A DNA stretch of 64,000 bases from a bacterium. GTDB lineage: Bacteria; UBA8248. Numbering within the stretch: the first letter of the stretch is position 1; every line of letters starts with the position of its first letter. This document shows positions 1-9,542 of the stretch, one piece after another. The notes under the pieces are model-generated. The model did not search any database. It was not told the DNA's origin and saw nothing but the letters and a program-made list of their open reading frames with translations. The DNA lies in the NCBI GenBank assembly GCA_965213685.1, contig CBDBZY010000038.1:32001-96000 (forward strand). Reading direction: 5' to 3'. The translations under genes and the position numbers were made by a program.

Positions 1-3000
1 CCCGAGGAGGAGCGGTTCGGAAGCGAGCGGGACGCCCGGGACGTTTTCCATCGCATGGCGGGATGCTGGACGTACTGGGGCTGGAAACACGGCTACTTTC
101 ATTCGGAAGACGACGCCAGAACGTTTTATGATGAACTCCTATACGTTCTCGCCAGCCAGATGGCCGCTCCCAACTCTCCCCAGTGGTTCAACACGGGACT
201 GCATTGGGCCTACGGCATTACGCGCCCTGCGCAGGGCCACTTCTACAGCGACCCGGAAACGGGGAAAATCCTTCGCTCCGCCAACGCCTATGAACGCCCC
301 CAGCCGCACGCTTGCTTCATCCAATCCGTCCAGGACGACCTCGTCAACGAGGGCGGGATCATGGATTTGTGGACGCGCGAGGCGCGCATTTTCAAGTATG
401 GCTCGGGGACCGGCACGAATTTCTCCAGCCTGCGGGCGGCCGGAGAATCGCTCTCGGGAGGCGGGAAGAGTTCCGGCCTCATGAGTTTCCTCAAGATCGG
501 CGACCGCGCGGCGGGGGCCATCAAGTCCGGGGGAACGACGCGGCGCGCCGCCAAGATGGTCACCCTCGACATGGACCATCCCGACATCGAGGAATTCATC
601 AACTGGAAAGTGAACGAAGAGGGGAAGGTGGCCTCCCTGGTCTCGGGCAGCAGGATGTGCAACCGGCACATGAACGCCGTCCTCGCCGCTTTCCGGGAGG
701 GGAAGAACCCCGGCGCCAACGGGAACCTCTACCAATCGGACAAAAACCCCGCTCTCACCAAGGCGATACGCGCCGCCAGGCTCGCGGGCGTGCCGGACAA
801 TTATATTCTTCGGACCCTGCAACTCGCGCGGCAAGGCATTACGGAAATCGAATTCGAGGAGTTCGACACGAATTGGGAGGGCGAGGCCTACGCTTCGGCG
901 TCCGGGCAGAACTCGAACAATTCTATTCGGGTTTCCGACAAATTCATGCAGGCCTTGGACAAAAATGCGGAATGGGACCTCATCAGGCGCACCGACCGGA
1001 AAGTCGCCGGCTCCGTCAGCGCCAAGGCGCTCTGGGAGCAGGTCGGGTATGCGGCGTGGTGCTGCGCAGACCCCGGCCTCCAGTTTGATACAACCATCAA
1101 CGACTGGCACACGTGCGCCGCCCACGAGCGCATCAACGGCTCCAATCCCTGCGCGGAGTACATGTTCCTGGACGATACCGCGTGCAATCTCGCATCCATG
1201 AATCTCATGAAGTTCCTCGACGTCGAAGCGAAACTCTTCCAGGTGGAAGACTACCGCCACGCCATTCGCCTGTTGACGATCGTCCTCGAAATTTCCGTGC
1301 TGATGGCGCAATTCCCCAGCGAGGCAATCGCCAAGCGCTCCTTTGAGTATCGCACCCTGGGGCTTGGATACGCGAATCTGGGCACCTTGCTGATGGTTCT
1401 CGGCATTCCGTATGATTCGCCGGAAGCGGAAGCGTGGTGCGGCGCCCTCACCTCCATCATGACGGGCCGCTCCTACGCCGCCAGTGCCGAGATGGCGGGA
1501 GAGCTGGGAGCGTTCGCAAGGTATCGCGATAACCGGGAGCCCATGCTGCGGGTTCTCCGAAACCACCGCCGGGCGGCTTACGCGGCGCCCGAGGCGGAAT
1601 ACGAGATGCTCTCCAAAGCCCCGAGAGGAATCTCCGAGAAAGTCTGCCCGCCCTACCTTCTGAACGCGGCGCGCGAGGCCTGGGATGACGCCCTGGACGT
1701 CGGCTACCGGAACGGCTACCGGAACGCGCAGACCACCGGCATCGCACCGACGGGCACCATCGGCCTGGTGATGGATTGCGACACGACGGGAATCGAGCCG
1801 GACTTCGCCCTGGTGAAATTCAAAAAACTGGCGGGCGGCGGTTATTTCAAGATCATCAACCAGTCCGTTCCCGTTGCCTTGCGCCATATGGGCTACGGCG
1901 AGGAGGAGATTCGCGAAATCGTCGCCTACTGCCGAGGGCGCGGCACCCTCACGAACGCGCCCCATATCAACCCGAAGTCCCTGCATCGCAAAGGATTTAC
2001 GGCCAGGGCGCTCGAGAAGGTGGAAGCCGCACTCGAGGGGGCGTTCGAGATTCAGTTCGCCTTCAACAAATACTCCCTTGGCGAGAAATTCTGTCGCGAG
2101 GAATTGGGGCTCGACGAGGCGCAACTCGCCGACTGGAACCTGAATTTGCTCGAAGCGATTGGCTTCACCCCCCGGCAAATCAGCGAGGCGAACGATTTCG
2201 TTTGCGGAAAAATGACGCTCGAGGGAGCGCCTCACCTCAAAGCAGGGCATCTGCCCGTTTTTGATTGCGCGAACAAGTGCGGCCGCGAGGGCAAGCGCTT
2301 CATACGTCCGATGGCCCATGTCCGGATGATGGCGGCGGCGCAGCCCTTCATCTCGGGTGCCATCAGCAAAACCATCAACATGCCGGCGGAAACCACCATC
2401 GCGGACATCCTCGACCTGTATCGTGAATCGTGGCGGCAGATGACGAAGGCCATCACCATCTACCGCGACGGCTCCAAACTCAGCCAGCCGCTTTCCGCAC
2501 AAGGCGAGGCGGAACTTTTCGATGAGATCGGCGAAGAAAACGTAGCTGCGCAAAACGCGCCGGTCAGAGTCGCCCAGAAGATCGTGCGCCGAATCATCTA
2601 CCAGTCCCAAAGGCGCAAGCTGCCTACGCGCCGCAGCGGATATACCCAGAAAGCCGTCGTCGGCGGCCACAAGGTGTATCTCAGAACCGGGGAATACGAA
2701 GACGGCTCCATCGGCGAAATTTTCATAGACATGCACAAAGAGGGCGCCGCCTTCCGCAGTCTGATGAATTGCTTCGCCATCGCCATTTCGCTGGGCCTCC
2801 AGCACGGCGTGCCCCTCGATGAGTTCGTGGACGCCTTCATCTTCACGCGCTTCGAGCCGGGCGGCACGGTCTCGGGCAACCCGCACATCAAGATGAGCAC
2901 GTCCATCATTGATTATATCTTCCGCGAGCTGGCCGTCTCCTATCTGGGGCGCAACGACCTGGCGCAGGTGGTGTCAGAGGACCTCCGGAGCGACACCATC

Positions 3001-3324
3001 GGGAGACCGGAGGAGGAGGTTCCGGAATTCGACGCCGAGGAGGAAGAGATTCAAACCATCATCCCGGGCCCGGAGGCGATCGTCCCGCGCAGCGACCGCG
3101 TGAGTCTGGATTATGAGAATGCCGCCAACCCGGAAGGCGCCATGGGGACTTCGGCGGCGCCTCTGGCAGGGGCGGGCTTCGCCGTGGATTCGCGGCGCAT
3201 CGAGGAGGCCCGCGCGAAGGGCTACGAAGGCGAGGCGTGCGGCGATTGCGGTTCGTTCACCCTGGTGAGAAACGGCACATGCCTGAAATGCGTGACCTGC
3301 GGTGCGACGAGCGGGTGTTCCTGA
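1..3324 (+). CDS. nrdJ: Class II (adenosylcobalamin-dependent) ribonucleotide reductase, 5'-truncated by the window edge
   Basis: Frame is open from base 1. Motifs [24 protein letters not shown] (thiyl Cys), [15 protein letters not shown]; C-terminal TSCPD-type region and CxxC...CxxCxxC...SGCS tail. Confidence 0.96.
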
Positions 3325-3341
3325 GGAATCCATAACGATTA

Positions 3342-3533
3342 CCCGTCGCGGGGGAAACGGGCGGACTCTGCGACGGGACGAGAGCCGGGGAAGAATCCTC
3401 GGAGGGTGATTCCCCGGCTCTCACCAAAAACCGAACTTCCGATGTTCTTCTGCCGCGGGGGAAACGGGCGGACTCTGCGGCAGACCGAGAGCCGATGGGA
3501 TCTCCTAGGGGGAGTTTCCATCGGCTCTCACCA
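3342..3533 (+). repeat. Two tandem 85-nt double-hairpin units (3342-3426 and 3449-3533); candidate structured ncRNA
   Basis: Identical 26-nt core CGCGGGGGAAACGGGCGGACTCTGCG; stems differ between copies by compensatory changes; both end GGCTCTC-ACCA; the second unit is followed by a T-run. Strand is inferred from the ACCA/T-run. Confidence 0.8.
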
Positions 3534-3541
3534 TTTTTGAC

Positions 3542-3570
3542 TTGACACCCGAGGCCCCTTCGCCTACCTT
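3542..3570 (+). promoter_or_regulatory. Sigma70 promoter of tRNA-Ala
   Basis: TTGACA (3542-3547), 17-bp spacer, TACCTT (3565-3570), just upstream of the tRNA. Confidence 0.7.
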
Positions 3571-3584
3571 CAGGTTCCTTTTGT

Positions 3585-3660
3585 GGGGGTGTAGCTCAGA
3601 TGGGAGAGCGCGTGGATCGCACCCACGAGGTCAGGGGTTCGAATCCCCTCACCTCCACCA
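3585..3660 (+). tRNA. tRNA-Ala(CGC)
   Basis: 76-nt cloverleaf: GGGGGTG/CACCTCC acceptor with G3:U70, anticodon arm CGTGG-ATCGCAC-CCACG, GGTTCGAATCC T-arm, encoded CCA. Confidence 0.96.
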
Positions 3661-3706
3661 GTCCGGCCTGCTGAAAGACTCTCCGAGGGATTCACCCGAA
3701 CAAATT

Positions 3707-4552
3707 TCAAACGCGCAACATGGCGATAGCCGCCTCCCGGGTCCGCATCCCCTCTTGCACCCCGCGCTCCTCAGCCACCGCGTTCATGCACGAAATGACG
3801 CCATCCACCCAGGTGCTCTTCACATCGCCGATGCGCGCGCTCATGGCGCCAACCGCAGCTGCCGCGATTCCCTCTCGCGCCAGATGGGGAAACGAAGCGA
3901 TGCCGGAATCATCCTTCCCCCGGCCAGCGTCGTTCGCAATGACGCCCTTCAGACAGAGCTGCACGACAGGCCCCACGAGCGTCAGCCCGCAATGGGAGGC
4001 CTGTATGAAGACATCATCGGGCCTGGGTTCCTTGATGGAGCGCAAGACAGGAATTCCCCATGAAGCGCGGATATTGCCGCCAGGAGAATTTTCCAGTTCA
4101 TAAATGGAATCATCCAGACTCTCTTCGATAATTATTTTTTGGCCCGCCTTGGCATTGAGCAGGCAGTTCGAGGCCTCCGCTACCGGCTGGCCAATTTCGA
4201 CGCCCAGTGCGCGGGCCGTTTGATTCGCGTGACCGACTTTTCCCTCATAGACAGATTTTCCTACCGCGAGTTTCGCCGACATCGTCTCGCACGCCAGCGC
4301 AGGCACATGGTGCTCCTCGGCCAGGCAGAGACCGCTGATACCCGCATCATCCTTGCCAACTCCCGCAGCATGGGCGACCACCGCTTTCACGCCCAAGCGC
4401 ATCGCCCAGGCAATCGTCATTCGCGCAGCGTAGGAACCTCCAACGAGAACGTCATCCGCATCGACCCTCTCGTCAAAATACGTCATCGAATCCGCCGAGA
4501 GAATACGGCCGCGCGCATCTTCATGGTGAACAATTTGTTGCGGGATCGGCAT
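3707..4552 (-). CDS. Hypothetical protein made of two internally repeated domains
   Basis: ~281 aa. Halves align (HAAGVGKDDAGISG / NDAGRGKDDSGIAS; SAKLA / SARIG; ANQTARALGVEIGQPVAEA / MNAVAEERGVQEGMRTREA). Start could alternatively be 4567. Confidence 0.75.
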   Translation of the reverse strand: MPIPQQIVHHEDARGRILSADSMTYFDERVDADDVLVGGSYAARMTIAWAMRLGVKAVVAHAAGVGKDDAGISGLCLAEEHHVPALACETMSAKLAVGKSVYEGKVGHANQTARALGVEIGQPVAEASNCLLNAKAGQKIIIEESLDDSIYELENSPGGNIRASWGIPVLRSIKEPRPDDVFIQASHCGLTLVGPVVQLCLKGVIANDAGRGKDDSGIASFPHLAREGIAAAAVGAMSARIGDVKSTWVDGVISCMNAVAEERGVQEGMRTREAAIAMLRV

Positions 4553-4695
4553 CGAATTTTCTTCCATGAGGCGAGATCGTGAACCGCGTCGCCGCCCGGC
4601 GGACAACGCAACCGGGCGGGGAGGTCACCCTGTCAGCGGGAGCACGCGGCCCCTTTTTCGGGTTTCGGGGAAACGCCCTGATGCGGCCGGACCGC

Positions 4696-6081: not shown

Positions 6082-6256
6082 CTACGCCATGTCCTTCGCC
6101 TGAAATTCGATGCGCCCCCCCGGGGGCTCCACCACCAGGTGAAGCGCCTCGGCCAGCCGCCCGGAAAGATGCCACATGCCGCAAATGAACGTGAGCTCCA
6201 CTATCTGGCGATCGGAGAAATACTTCTTCATCTCCCCGAATGCGAACTCATCGCTT
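6082..6256 (-). repeat. 175-bp direct repeat, copy 2 (3' end of the AhpD-like CDS)
   Basis: Matches 4696-4870. Confidence 0.95.
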
Positions 6257-6748
6257 TTGGCCGTGAACTTCGACACCCGCATCCGCCCACCGGATGACCG
6301 CTTTTTCCTTGTCATCGAACAAGGCGCTGTCCTTCCACCCATCGCCTTCCAGCAGATTGATCTGCTCCTGGCTGATACCGAGAGCCCGACCGAGCTCGAC
6401 GTTGTGCCCGATTCAGTTGTTGCACTCCGTCAGGATGGCCGTCTTGACGATGACGAGCTCCATGAGCCGGATGTAGCCGGCTTCCGTCTTCAGCCGATTC
6501 GTGCGGAGCTTCTGATCCAGCAGCATCCACCCCTCCACGGTGGGGGGCGAGTTTCCCAGCAGCTGCAAAAAGCGCGGGACGGTGCCCCACATCCGCACCG
6601 CCCAGTCATAAAGCGGAGCGAGTTCGTCCCGCAGGTCGGCGGGAATGTTTTCCGGATCGACGAAAGGCAGCCTCGGCAACGGACACGCCATCATCTCGTC
6701 GGTCACGCCCAGGCTGTCCGGCAGGCTCGTCGCTTTGTCCACAGGCAT
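6082..6748 (-). CDS. AhpD/carboxymuconolactone-decarboxylase-family protein, probable selenoprotein (CxxU); one apparent +1 indel near 6277
   Basis: ORF 6413..6748 stops at TGA in ELVIVKTAILTECNN*, and the same frame continues IGHNVELGRALGISQEQINLLEGDGWKDSALFDDKEKAVIRWADA. Removing one G joins it to VSKFTAKSDEFAFGEMKKYFSDRQIVELTFICGMW (ORF 6082..6342), giving ~221 aa. Confidence 0.8.
6377..6412 (-). promoter_or_regulatory. Candidate bacterial SECIS element
   Basis: 15 nt after the UGA: stem GAGCUC/GGGCUC with apical loop GGUC; possible lower stem AUCGG/UCGGU. Confidence 0.6.
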
Positions 6749-6781
6749 CGGGTTCTCCTTCCGAAAAGGGTGGATGTGGTT

Positions 6782-9031
6782 TTACGCCTCGCCCGCCGCC
6801 AGGGCCTCGCGGATGTGGTGCGGGCCGACGGGCAGCGAGAAAACGGGGACTCCGACAGCGTCCTGTATCGCGTTCACGATGGCCGCTGCGGTCGCCACGA
6901 TGGGCGGCTCCCCCACGCCCCGCATTCCGTAGGGCGTGCCTTCCGCCGGATTGTCATACAAAACGGCGTGCAGCTCCGGCATGTCCATGCTGGTGGGTAT
7001 GAGGTATTCATGGAAGGTGTCGCCATGCAGATTGCCGTCCGGCCGCCGGGGCTGCTCCTCCATGAGAGCCATGCCGAGGCCCTGGAGCATGGCGCCCTCG
7101 ATCTGTCCCACCACGGACAACGGGTTGATGGCGAACCCCACGTCCTGCACGCACGTCAGGCGCAAGACCCTGATCTCCCCGAGTTCGGGATTGACGGCCA
7201 CGTCCGCCACCTGCCCGGTATGTATCGGGCAGGGAGGCGGCTTCGCGCTCTCGCCCTGTCCAATCAAGAATCCCTGGATGGCGGGCGCAGCAGCAGCCAC
7301 CTCCGCAAGCGTCAGGGAGCGTTCGGGCGCCCCGGCCACCTTGACCCGTCCGTCTTCGAGAACCAGATCCTCCGCCGCCGCTTCGAGCCGGACGCTCGCC
7401 ACATGCAGTATCTTGTTTCGCAAATCACGCGCCGCGCTCAAGGCGGCCATTCCCACGGCGCGCGTCGCCTTGCTGCCCGACGCCGCGGAGGATTCCGGCA
7501 CGGAATCCGTGTCCCCGTTCGTGTAGCGCACATCGTCCAGCCCCACGCCCAGCTCCTCGGCGGCCAGCTGGCATATGGAAGTGCTCATGCCCGTGAGGTT
7601 GACCGTTCCCGCTATCACCTGCGCGGTGCCGTCCTGGTTGAGGCGCACCGCGCAGCTGGACGCCTCCCCCGGCCCTGGCCAGTATCCGCAGGCGATGCCC
7701 CGGCCCAGCCTCCAGCCCTCTCCTTCCAGCTCGCCATTCGCCTCCACCCGCTGCCCCCACTTCCCCTCCACGGCCGCCGCGTCGAGAACGCCGCGCATGG
7801 ACGGCTTCCGCTCCTTGCCGGCCAGCGTCTCATCCCCGGGTTGGAGGGAATTGATTCGCCTGAGCTCGAGGGGATCCATCCCCATCTCGCGCGCGATGAT
7901 GTCCATCTGCACCTCGGTGGCGAAATGATACTGGGGGCCGCTCGGAGCGCGCACGGGACCGCAAATCGGCCCGTTGCTATACACCGTGCACGCGCGAATC
8001 CGGACGTTGGGAATGCGATAGGAGGACGAGCCCATCAGCATCTTGCTGCTGCACTGGAACGGGGCGCCCCGGCCATACGCCCCATGATCCATGGTGACGT
8101 CGAGTTCGCGCGCCACCAGCGCGCCGTCATTCTTCACGGCCGTCCGTATGGTGATGAAATGGGGATGTCTCGGATTCACCCCGTTGTGGTCTTCCTCGCG
8201 GGTCATCTCCATGTGCACGGCCTGGTCCGTCTTCAAGGCCAAAAGGGCGGCGATGTGCTCATACGTGCTCTTGAGCTTCGCGCCAAACCCCCCTCCGATC
8301 TCCGTGGGTATCACGCGAACCTGCGTGGCCGGATAGCCCAGGGCCTCGGCCACGTCCGCCCGGATGCTCCACGCATCCTGCGTGGTCGTCCAGATGGTGA
8401 CTTTCCCGTCGGCGCCGGCCTCCGCTGTGCAGGCGTGGGGCTCGATATAGCCCGCATGCACGAAGGGGGTGGAAAACGTATGCTCAAAAACCCGGTCCGC
8501 CTCCCTGTAGCCGGCCTCGACGTTTCCGATCTCTTTCTCGAACCGGGCGATGACGTTCTTCTCCCCGTTCGGGCCCAGCCCCAGCTCCCGCCAATCCGCG
8601 TGAACGGCCAGTCCCTTTCCGGCGCGGCTGTCCAGGCCGTTCACCACCGGCTCCAACACCTCGTAGTCCACCCGAATCGATGCGATGGCCTCTCGGGCGG
8701 CGTCCATATCCTCGGCGGCCACGGCGGCGACGGGTTCTCCCCCGTATCGGACAAAGCCGTCTTGCGCGAACCAGCTCTGGTCCTTGATGTTGGCTCCAAA
8801 CCGGATGCGGGGGGCCTCCTCCCGCGTCAATACGGCGCGGACGCCGGGAATCCTGCGCGCAGCCGCCGCATCCACGCTCTTCACCTTCGCATACGGGTGC
8901 GGGCTGCCCAGCACGAGGCCGACCAGCGAACGGCCCGAGGGGACGTCCGCCGCATATTTCGCGCTTCCAGACGCCTTGTCCGGGGCGTCGATTCGGGCGT
9001 GGCCCAAGCCTGCTACCTTATAATCGGTCAT
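6782..9031 (-). CDS. Xanthine dehydrogenase/aldehyde oxidase family molybdopterin-binding subunit
   Basis: KASGSAKYAAD, HAGYIEPH, IGGGFGAK, GQIEGAMLQGLG, GVGEPP (catalytic Glu); RBS GAGGTGG. Confidence 0.93.
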   Translation of the reverse strand: MTDYKVAGLGHARIDAPDKASGSAKYAADVPSGRSLVGLVLGSPHPYAKVKSVDAAAARRIPGVRAVLTREEAPRIRFGANIKDQSWFAQDGFVRYGGEPVAAVAAEDMDAAREAIASIRVDYEVLEPVVNGLDSRAGKGLAVHADWRELGLGPNGEKNVIARFEKEIGNVEAGYREADRVFEHTFSTPFVHAGYIEPHACTAEAGADGKVTIWTTTQDAWSIRADVAEALGYPATQVRVIPTEIGGGFGAKLKSTYEHIAALLALKTDQAVHMEMTREEDHNGVNPRHPHFITIRTAVKNDGALVARELDVTMDHGAYGRGAPFQCSSKMLMGSSSYRIPNVRIRACTVYSNGPICGPVRAPSGPQYHFATEVQMDIIAREMGMDPLELRRINSLQPGDETLAGKERKPSMRGVLDAAAVEGKWGQRVEANGELEGEGWRLGRGIACGYWPGPGEASSCAVRLNQDGTAQVIAGTVNLTGMSTSICQLAAEELGVGLDDVRYTNGDTDSVPESSAASGSKATRAVGMAALSAARDLRNKILHVASVRLEAAAEDLVLEDGRVKVAGAPERSLTLAEVAAAAPAIQGFLIGQGESAKPPPCPIHTGQVADVAVNPELGEIRVLRLTCVQDVGFAINPLSVVGQIEGAMLQGLGMALMEEQPRRPDGNLHGDTFHEYLIPTSMDMPELHAVLYDNPAEGTPYGMRGVGEPPIVATAAAIVNAIQDAVGVPVFSLPVGPHHIREALAAGEA

Positions 9032-9140
9032 TTCCACCTCACAGAGAAATATGGCGAAACAGCCTCATCTTCCGCGTCCTCCGGCATGATCGCGCGTCCC
9101 CTCCACCGCCCGGCGCGTCCGAACGGCGTCTCCCGCGTGC

Positions 9141-9542
9141 CTATTCGGGAACGTCCGGCGGCCTCGCGCCGTGCGTGGCGCGAATTTTCGTCTTGATGTT
9201 TCCGCGCACATGGAAATCCCCTTCGATCCACACCCATTTCGGCGCACAGGCCTCCACGAAATCATCCAGGATGCCGCCCACCACCTGTTCATGAAAAATT
9301 TCCCGATCCCTGTAGCGGTTGACGTAGAGCTTCAGGGATTTCAACTCCACGATTTTATCCCCGGGGACATACCGGATGCGGATGGTGGCGAAATCGGGGA
9401 AATTGCTGATCGGGCAAAGGCAGGTAAACTCGGGGATGGTGAAATCGACCACATAATCCCGTTGTCTGGCGGGGTTGGGAACCGCCTCCAGCTTCGCCTC
9501 CGCGATCATCTTCGCCCCGTATTTCATCTCGCTTCGAGCCAT
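9141..9542 (-). CDS. queF: NADPH-dependent preQ0 (7-cyano-7-deazaguanine) reductase, short type
   Basis: PEFTCLCP...[22 protein letters not shown] motifs; RBS GGAGA. Confidence 0.93.

Follow-up and report, generated by a model that had tools for sequence, protein, structure and literature searches.

Which molecule is encoded by the two similar, highly structured units lying directly behind the ribonucleotide reductase gene nrdJ, and what could it do for this gene? The window, i.e. the whole stretch of 64,000 nucleotides that was analysed, carries these units close to its beginning, and an earlier note had described them as tandem elements with compensatory mutations, a conserved loop and a tRNA-like stem followed by ACCA, proposing either a functional RNA or a structured DNA repeat. 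The features on which the question turns are the following:

1-3324, + strand: nrdJ, class II (B12-dependent) ribonucleotide reductase (Pfam Ribonuc_red_lgC, 1.2e-121; Ribonuc_red_2_N; TSCPD)
3342-3377, + strand: hairpin A of unit 1 (fold; covariation in 81 units)
3342-3349/3370-3377, + strand: outer stem of hairpin A, unit 1 (fold)
3350-3353/3366-3369, + strand: inner stem GGGG/CUCU of hairpin A, unit 1, with two G·U pairs (fold)
3354-3365, + strand: 12-nt loop of hairpin A, unit 1 (fold)
3358-3366, + strand: CGGGCGGAC of unit 1, invariant, made up of the 3' portion of loop A and the C closing it (no change in any of the 81 distinct units)
3380-3422, + strand: hairpin B of unit 1, with a 13-pair basal stem, a small internal loop and the apical helix AUCCU/AGGGU closing a CGG triloop (fold)
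3423-3426, + strand: ACCA after hairpin B of unit 1 (read directly)
3427-3448, + strand: non-conserved spacer of 22 nt between the units (alignment)
3449-3484, + strand: hairpin A of unit 2 (outer stem 3449-3456/3477-3484, inner stem 3457-3460/3473-3476, loop 3461-3472)
3465-3473, + strand: invariant CGGGCGGAC of unit 2 (comparison of units)
3487-3529, + strand: hairpin B of unit 2, terminal type, with the apical helix CUCCU/GGGAG and an AGG triloop (fold)
3530-3538, + strand: ACCA and TTTTT, the terminator-like tail ACCATTTTTG of the last hairpin B
3542-3570, + strand: promoter-like TTGACA-17-TACCTT of the tRNA gene, which lies outside the RNA module and bounds it (read directly)
3585-3660, + strand: tRNA-Ala(CGC), downstream neighbour of the array (ARAGORN)

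Direct reading and alignment bear out two units of equal length, 85 nt each (3342-3426 and 3449-3533), with cores at 3350 and 3457 and hence the period of 107 that had been claimed. The invariant core assigned to hairpin A is likewise real, as the 26-nt block CGCGGGGGAAACGGGCGGACTCTGCG is identical between the units. Hairpin A consists of 12 pairs in either unit, divided into an outer stem of eight and an inner stem of four, and carries the 12-nt loop GAAACGGGCGGA, while hairpin B combines a basal stem of 13-14 pairs and a small internal loop with a 5-pair apical helix that closes a triloop. From unit 1 to unit 2 the outer stem of hairpin A changes from CCCGTCGC/GCGACGGG to TCTGCCGC/GCGGCAGA by exactly the three compensatory pairs reported before; the change in hairpin B from GAGAGCCGGGGA/TCCCCGGCTCTC to GAGAGCCGATGG/CCATCGGCTCTC is compensatory too, but it affects three pairs and not two, as had been counted. 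ACCA follows both units, and the T-run (TTTTT, 3534-3538) stands after the second, just before the tRNA promoter, as the note had it. The window contains the 20-nt core twice, where 0.03 occurrences would be expected. Tandem Repeats Finder reported no repeat over the units, which is no evidence against a repeat because they are only 81% alike per column. In relatives, the spacers between units measure 10-110 nt.

Whether these stems are maintained by selection was decided by comparison. A covariance model, R1, was built from 54 units (alignment A2), and alignment A4, which is fitted to R1 and holds its 86 matches or 81 distinct units, has standard pairs in 98.0% of 2015 cells and changes on both sides in 21 of 25 pairs. 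Each of the five measures exceeded all 500 shuffles, and sliding the partners by 1-3 columns lowered pairing to 44-53%. Double changes affect all 13 modelled pairs of hairpin B, and an independent MAFFT/RNAalifold analysis of A2 agrees, with double changes in 12 of 20 pairs. Loop A behaves differently: CGGGCGGAC (columns 20-28, the last eight loop bases plus the closing C) never varies among the distinct units, nor do G11 and G13; the A preceding it is kept in 78 of 81, and the first three loop bases are variable (GAA, GAC, CAC, GUA, AAA and others). The apex of hairpin B is conserved as CCU-NGK-RGG. This constancy of the loop spans genera whose NrdJ C-termini are only ~70-76% identical, and an invariant loop presented on freely covarying stems points to sequence-specific recognition by something else. 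Interpreting loop A as a K-turn or a tandem G·A motif was dropped, as column 15 is variable (G 62, A 10, C 8, U 1). The inference of a functional RNA from selection on structure plus a conserved loop is thus sustained by covariation in 81 units.

The fold and its wobble pairs also tell the strand. Between 3325 and 3545 the + strand folds at -121.6 kcal/mol, compared with -83.5 ± 5.1 for 200 shuffled sequences (z of -7.5, no shuffle as good); the - strand of the array has a fold z of -4.1. G10·U31 is found in 61 and G12·U29 in 79 of the 81 units, together with many U·G pairs in the outer stem, all of which would be A/C mismatches on the opposite strand. Some units replace the G·U pairs of the inner stem by A-U and G-C, supporting this stem. 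Since the G·U pairs exist on the + strand only, the functional form is RNA or single-stranded DNA of the nrdJ strand and not duplex DNA, and the structured DNA repeat that had been offered as an alternative is disfavoured.

The module is tied to one gene and one family. BLASTN with the 214-nt stretch matched 23 of the 41 related genomes, 20 of them among the 22 of the genus, and R1, run over a sample of the phylum, detected the module in 37 of 51 genomes, all belonging to family f1 (Nitrospinota), where it occurs in 36 of 41 relatives and seven of the nine genera sampled. None of nine genomes from three other families (f2-f4) gave a match. In the sister family f4, NrdJ is shorter and 45-54% identical over aligned stretches (45-48% in five of seven genomes), and the nrdJ 3' flank contains no module, the best score being 15.6 bits versus at least 40.9 bits for real units. 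The five unmatched f1 genomes do not argue for absence because the nrdJ 3' flank is not assembled: contigs end 10 nt (G017) or 41 nt (G056) past nrdJ, and in G018, G046 and G024 the 3' part of nrdJ was not found with the query used. Each matching genome has a single locus with one to four tandem units, and the genome of the window has exactly two R1 matches, both at the array. When up to three mismatches in the core are allowed, its assembly yields the two array copies and one 3-mismatch match on another contig. The hundreds of scattered REP-like copies and the lack of conservation that the earlier note had named as grounds for abandoning the idea were both looked for, and what was found is one syntenic locus per genome, strongly conserved among relatives; a dispersed REP/BIME-like repeat was therefore rejected. 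The suggested linkage to nrdJ also holds, as 29 of the 30 loci examined have a NrdJ C-terminus immediately upstream and the remaining locus is a 620-nt fragment. From these data, the stretch encodes a real, strongly conserved structured RNA module, neither a chance structure nor a dispersed repeat.

Public contigs with stem-flanked cores are recorded as belonging to Nitrospinota, Nitrospinaceae and 'Candidatus Tectomicrobia' MAGs. A metagenome scan returned at least 119 loci, and among the matches listed six were real modules, all six after a NrdJ C-terminus; the other 113, again among the matches listed, were set aside as chance core matches having no flanking stem, as were single exact core matches in other phyla. 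The pattern used for the genome collection required AAC before GGGCGG, and CAC variants were covered in the phylum sample only. L073 and L077, from a public record of 18 kb titled Alphaproteobacteria bacterium CMAR1, 'chromosome 64', contain 39 and 33 matches to the core pattern without a flanking stem; this record consists mostly of tandemly repeated DNA, spaced at 179 nt or multiples of it, and is unrelated to the module. In three genomes (L021, L022 and L023), a gap of 76 nt between two units holds an orphan hairpin B of the middle type without hairpin A, which looks like the partial deletion of one module. One genus has small ORFs separating the array from both nrdJ and the tRNA gene; they encode ~80 aa, flank the array on both sides (L086:1233-1484 and L086:1923-2165; also L173, L167 and L180) and resemble each other in a shared ...LFG.N...EAD... 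stretch, with no Pfam match and no homologue in the genome of the window.

How is the array expressed? The 5' end of nrdJ lies upstream of the window, with a GTG start at L181:1520 (reading and tblastn), and its stop codon TGA occupies 3322-3324, leaving 17 nt before the first stem of unit 1 at 3342. A consensus promoter scan of 3100-3800 reported no promoter, the TTGACA-17-TACCTT site (TTGACA 3542-3547, TACCTT 3565-3570, spacing of 17 nt by direct reading) included. Given the short distance from stop to stem and the lack of a promoter-like site in this interval, the RNA is most simply part of the nrdJ transcript. Its 3' end likely is ACCA-TTTTT at 3530-3538, as in the window the stem of the last hairpin B ends at 3529 and a U-run begins 4 nt further on, in the manner of an intrinsic terminator. 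T-runs after hairpin B are confined to terminal units, and 17 of 33 loci have one of at least four T behind their last unit, leaving 16 without it, among them three of the four loci of the genus with single units; plausibly, the last hairpin B thus acts as a terminator in the window but not everywhere. Metatranscriptomes (four runs) cover the array only by contigs of relatives, 85-95% alike: one study provides an 872-nt contig spanning array and tRNA, and another provides two short contigs covering parts of units 1 and 2. These contigs leave most of nrdJ uncovered, and transcript ends cannot be read from them. As contigs from RNA libraries they are a weak hint that the array is transcribed, with DNA carry-over possible.

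The constant partner of the array is nrdJ, and tRNA-Ala(CGC) is its usual but non-obligatory neighbour: it lies downstream in 27 of the 30 related loci scanned and is absent in L015, and in the loci of the single-unit genus, which stand outside these 30, no tRNA gene occurs within the 130 nt read downstream. The element CTTGACAC of the tRNA promoter region is retained in most relatives. The tRNA-Ala gene scores 42.6 bits with the Rfam tmRNA model (gathering score 47) via its tRNA-like ends, and a tmRNA at 3585-3660 was rejected as a tRNA scored by a model of the same clan. Of the neighbouring genes, none is conserved with the array beyond the genus. After the tRNA, an ORF of 299 aa on the - strand (3707-4606) has weak family matches only (IMS and DUF1805, below or near the cut-off) and its synteny extends over 15 related loci, with 78-81% identity, all within the genus. 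Further on, an ORF of 1006 aa (6176-9196, + strand), rich in Arg, His, Gly and Pro and without Pfam or NCBIfam match, is probably the shadow of the - strand ORF 6782-9037; it is nonetheless conserved near nrdJ in several relatives by tblastn. The nrdJ promoter region (L181:1345-1435) contains three copies of a direct repeat, about GTTGYGATAATARC, spaced 20 nt apart, and a related palindrome around TTGACA, where congeners have AT-rich palindromes instead, resembling NrdR boxes; transcriptional control of nrdJ may thus differ between this genome and its congeners. The assembly itself (G000; 7.97 Mb, 71 contigs, overall GC 54%) has 242 tRNA genes by ARAGORN, with many near-identical copies of tRNA-Ala(AGC) and tRNA-Ser(AGA) on several contigs, and DNA from another organism, perhaps a eukaryotic host, may be mixed into the bin.

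With moderate confidence, which covers the variants of this reading together, we interpret the array as a series of docking modules in the 3' UTR of nrdJ for a putative sequence-specific factor, whereby both the factor and its effect are inferred. The modular RNA would form the 3' untranslated tail of the nrdJ mRNA. In each module, the stem of hairpin A, free in sequence, presents the 12-nt loop with its fixed CGGGCGGAC, and hairpin B adds a covarying basal stem with a conserved small apical helix and an NGG-type triloop. The modules are autonomous, strung together in numbers of one to four, and the U-rich tract after the last hairpin B would usually end the transcript. The invariant loop would be the docking site of a trans-acting factor, most likely a protein, which on binding would decide what becomes of the nrdJ message, be it through decay starting at its 3' end, through formation of that end or through processing, and the number of modules would tune the response. 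By itself, the invariant loop would suit base pairing with a second RNA, or the binding of a ligand, just as well, and these possibilities lead to the alternatives considered below.

The array could instead be cut from the nrdJ transcript, or persist as a stable remnant of its decay, and act in trans as a 3'-UTR-derived sRNA or sponge whose loops pair with or titrate RNA or protein. Its very stable hairpins would withstand exonucleases acting from the 3' end, its invariant loop is single-stranded, and copy number varies as it does in sponge RNAs. Bacterial 3'-UTR-derived sRNAs and sponges such as CpxQ and SroC use a single-stranded seed and are single-copy; like them, the array is a structured RNA directly after a coding region that ends at the terminator of the gene, but it is built from repeated two-hairpin modules, and a search for conserved trans targets yielded none; the 10-mer complement GTCCGCCCGT occurs at 10 other sites of the genome that all fall within long open frames. 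The one pairing of note lies in the nrdJ mRNA itself. In its 5' UTR, ~70 nt before the GTG start (L181:1450-1461, ~340-350 nt upstream of the window start), a small hairpin AUGAAA...UUUCAU exposes the loop CCCGUCCGUUUC, which can form 11 consecutive pairs with GAAACGGGCGG of loop A at -20.9 kcal/mol, an energy that no shuffle attained, either in a set of 500 or in one of 300. Yet p<=0.05 was obtained in only four of 25 genomes (the own one, L190, L202 and L203) and at differing positions (-69, -68 and -41), so that this contact was rejected as a general mechanism; in the genome of the window it may be a lineage-specific addition or chance. Other RNAs offered less. The 8-nt complementarity of the loop stretch ACGGGCGG to CCGCCCGT in the 16S gene of the own assembly is about what chance gives (an 8-mer complement in the rRNA operon has a roughly estimated expectation of ~0.2, or ~1 in 5), a same-sense mimic of the loop was looked for in the rRNA operon without success, and the best tRNA complements are unspecific T-arm or acceptor stretches within chance.

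Titration of a protein, which the earlier note had also considered, was examined for one candidate family, CsrA. CsrB and RsmZ share with the array their tandem hairpins; their GGA-containing loops have an uncertain counterpart in it, with CGGAC invariant in loop A and an NGG triloop in hairpin B (followed by A in only 28 of 81 units). However, csrA (PF02599) is absent from all 22 genomes of the genus and from the own genome and present in seven of 41 in the family, the same model detecting it in E. coli, B. subtilis and T. maritima as controls; moreover, the loop is far tighter than ANGGA, and the RNA is fixed to nrdJ. A CsrA sponge is therefore excluded for the genus, and trans action as a whole appears unlikely to us.

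Passive protection or termination of the nrdJ 3' end, without any specific partner, would also fit the stability and GC-richness of the hairpins, their place behind the gene and the U-rich tail that follows the last of them. Such a role would leave unexplained why nine loop bases are invariant across 81 units and seven genera, why the apex of hairpin B is conserved and why certain G·U pairs are fixed, and we regard it as improbable.

An invariant loop on a covarying stem is, on the other hand, the usual signature of an aptamer, and tandem aptamers are known, so that hairpin A could bind a small ligand (for instance a nucleotide or a cobamide-related signal) with hairpin B as the expression platform. 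By direct reading, the 3' part of the loop, CGGACUCU, could even pair with the 5' arm GAGAGCCG of hairpin B, with one bulge. This alternative pairing is out of reach of covariation, as the loop never varies, and is broken by an A at column 51 in 11 units; a T-run follows hairpin B in terminal units only. Furthermore, the element follows the nrdJ coding region instead of preceding a gene under its control, and lies on the other side of a promoter from the tRNA; 12 loop nucleotides leave little room for a pocket, and the Rfam scan, run with E as high as 10, matched no riboswitch. We therefore consider an aptamer quite improbable.

The scan just mentioned covered 2800-4000 on both strands against Rfam 15 and returned no family over the units, whose best scores of 18.7 and 17.3 bits are far below the gathering scores; the only strong match was the tRNA, in line with the earlier statement that no Rfam family is recognised, and the hit to a known family that the earlier note had listed among its refutations did not turn up. 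Likewise, the portions of papers reached by a full-text literature search report no structured RNA after nrdJ or in Nitrospina. The Rfam scan also bears on the reading of hairpin B and ACCA as a tRNA-like minihelix on which RNase P or CCA-related enzymes would act. In the window both units, and in the genus most first units, have a stem of 12-13 pairs followed by ACCA, and a tRNA gene is the usual neighbour. Across the family, though, NCCA follows hairpin B in only 30 of the 81 distinct units (24 of them with ACCA), most terminal units continue with CCUU, CCUA or CCUG, the apex is a further helix of five pairs with a triloop in place of a T-loop, ARAGORN and the Rfam scan call nothing tRNA-like over the units (ARAGORN finding the true tRNA only), and the tRNA neighbour is missing at some module loci (L015 and the single-unit genus). 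The tRNA-like character fits the window and not the wider family of units; as a general property it falls, and a minihelix substrate is highly improbable. Equally remote is a DNA-level element (a protein-binding repeat, recombination site or cruciform), for which a tandem repeat with invariant core beside a tRNA gene, a common class of integration site, might speak, as its stems covary instead of keeping their sequence, its conserved G·U pairs would not match on the opposite strand or in a DNA duplex, it occupies one strictly syntenic locus per genome, and the flanks examined contain no integrase or mobile element.

Returning to docking modules in the nrdJ 3' UTR, a close parallel is eukaryotic: the tandem iron-responsive elements (IREs) in the 3' UTR of the transferrin-receptor mRNA serve as docking sites that set mRNA stability. 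Common to both are several autonomous 3'-UTR hairpins with a fixed loop on a sequence-free stem. In contrast, IREs have a CAGUGN hexaloop and a bulged C, a consensus which the loop NNNACGGGCGGA of the nrdJ module does not match, its 12 nucleotides ending in CGGGCGGA; the nrdJ module is bacterial, has a second hairpin per module, and its binding factor is putative. REP/BIME and BOX elements are imperfect palindromes in tandem after genes as well, but occupy tens to hundreds of loci per genome, whereas the nrdJ module has one, syntenic across the family. The ToxI RNA of type III toxin-antitoxin systems, made of tandem repeats of ~36 nt, is also an RNA repeat array closed by a terminator; in the nrdJ array, the repeats are ~105 nt long and not near-identical, and instead of a toxin gene a tRNA gene with its own promoter comes next. 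Our model may thus be extended to a bacterial counterpart of the IRE/IRP system, in which a putative sensor (a protein, or a small molecule on hairpin A) would read the CGGGCGGAC loops in the nrdJ 3' UTR and couple dNTP supply to a cellular signal such as cobamide, iron, redox or dNTP status, and in the genome of the window the loops may in addition form a closed-loop contact with the hairpin of the nrdJ 5' UTR; we offer this extension tentatively, as a possibility clearly weaker than docking as such.

As a new RNA motif with very strong covariation and an invariant loop, the module would be a tractable bait for a new RNA-binding factor or ligand. Its host family belongs to the Nitrospinota, an environmentally important and little studied phylum. 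To our knowledge, ribonucleotide reductase is the only route to the building blocks of DNA, and the known bacterial control of this enzyme is transcriptional (by NrdR, and by B12 riboswitches on other classes) and allosteric. If our interpretation is true, a conserved, repeated and sequence-specific 3'-UTR element would add a post-transcriptional layer to it.
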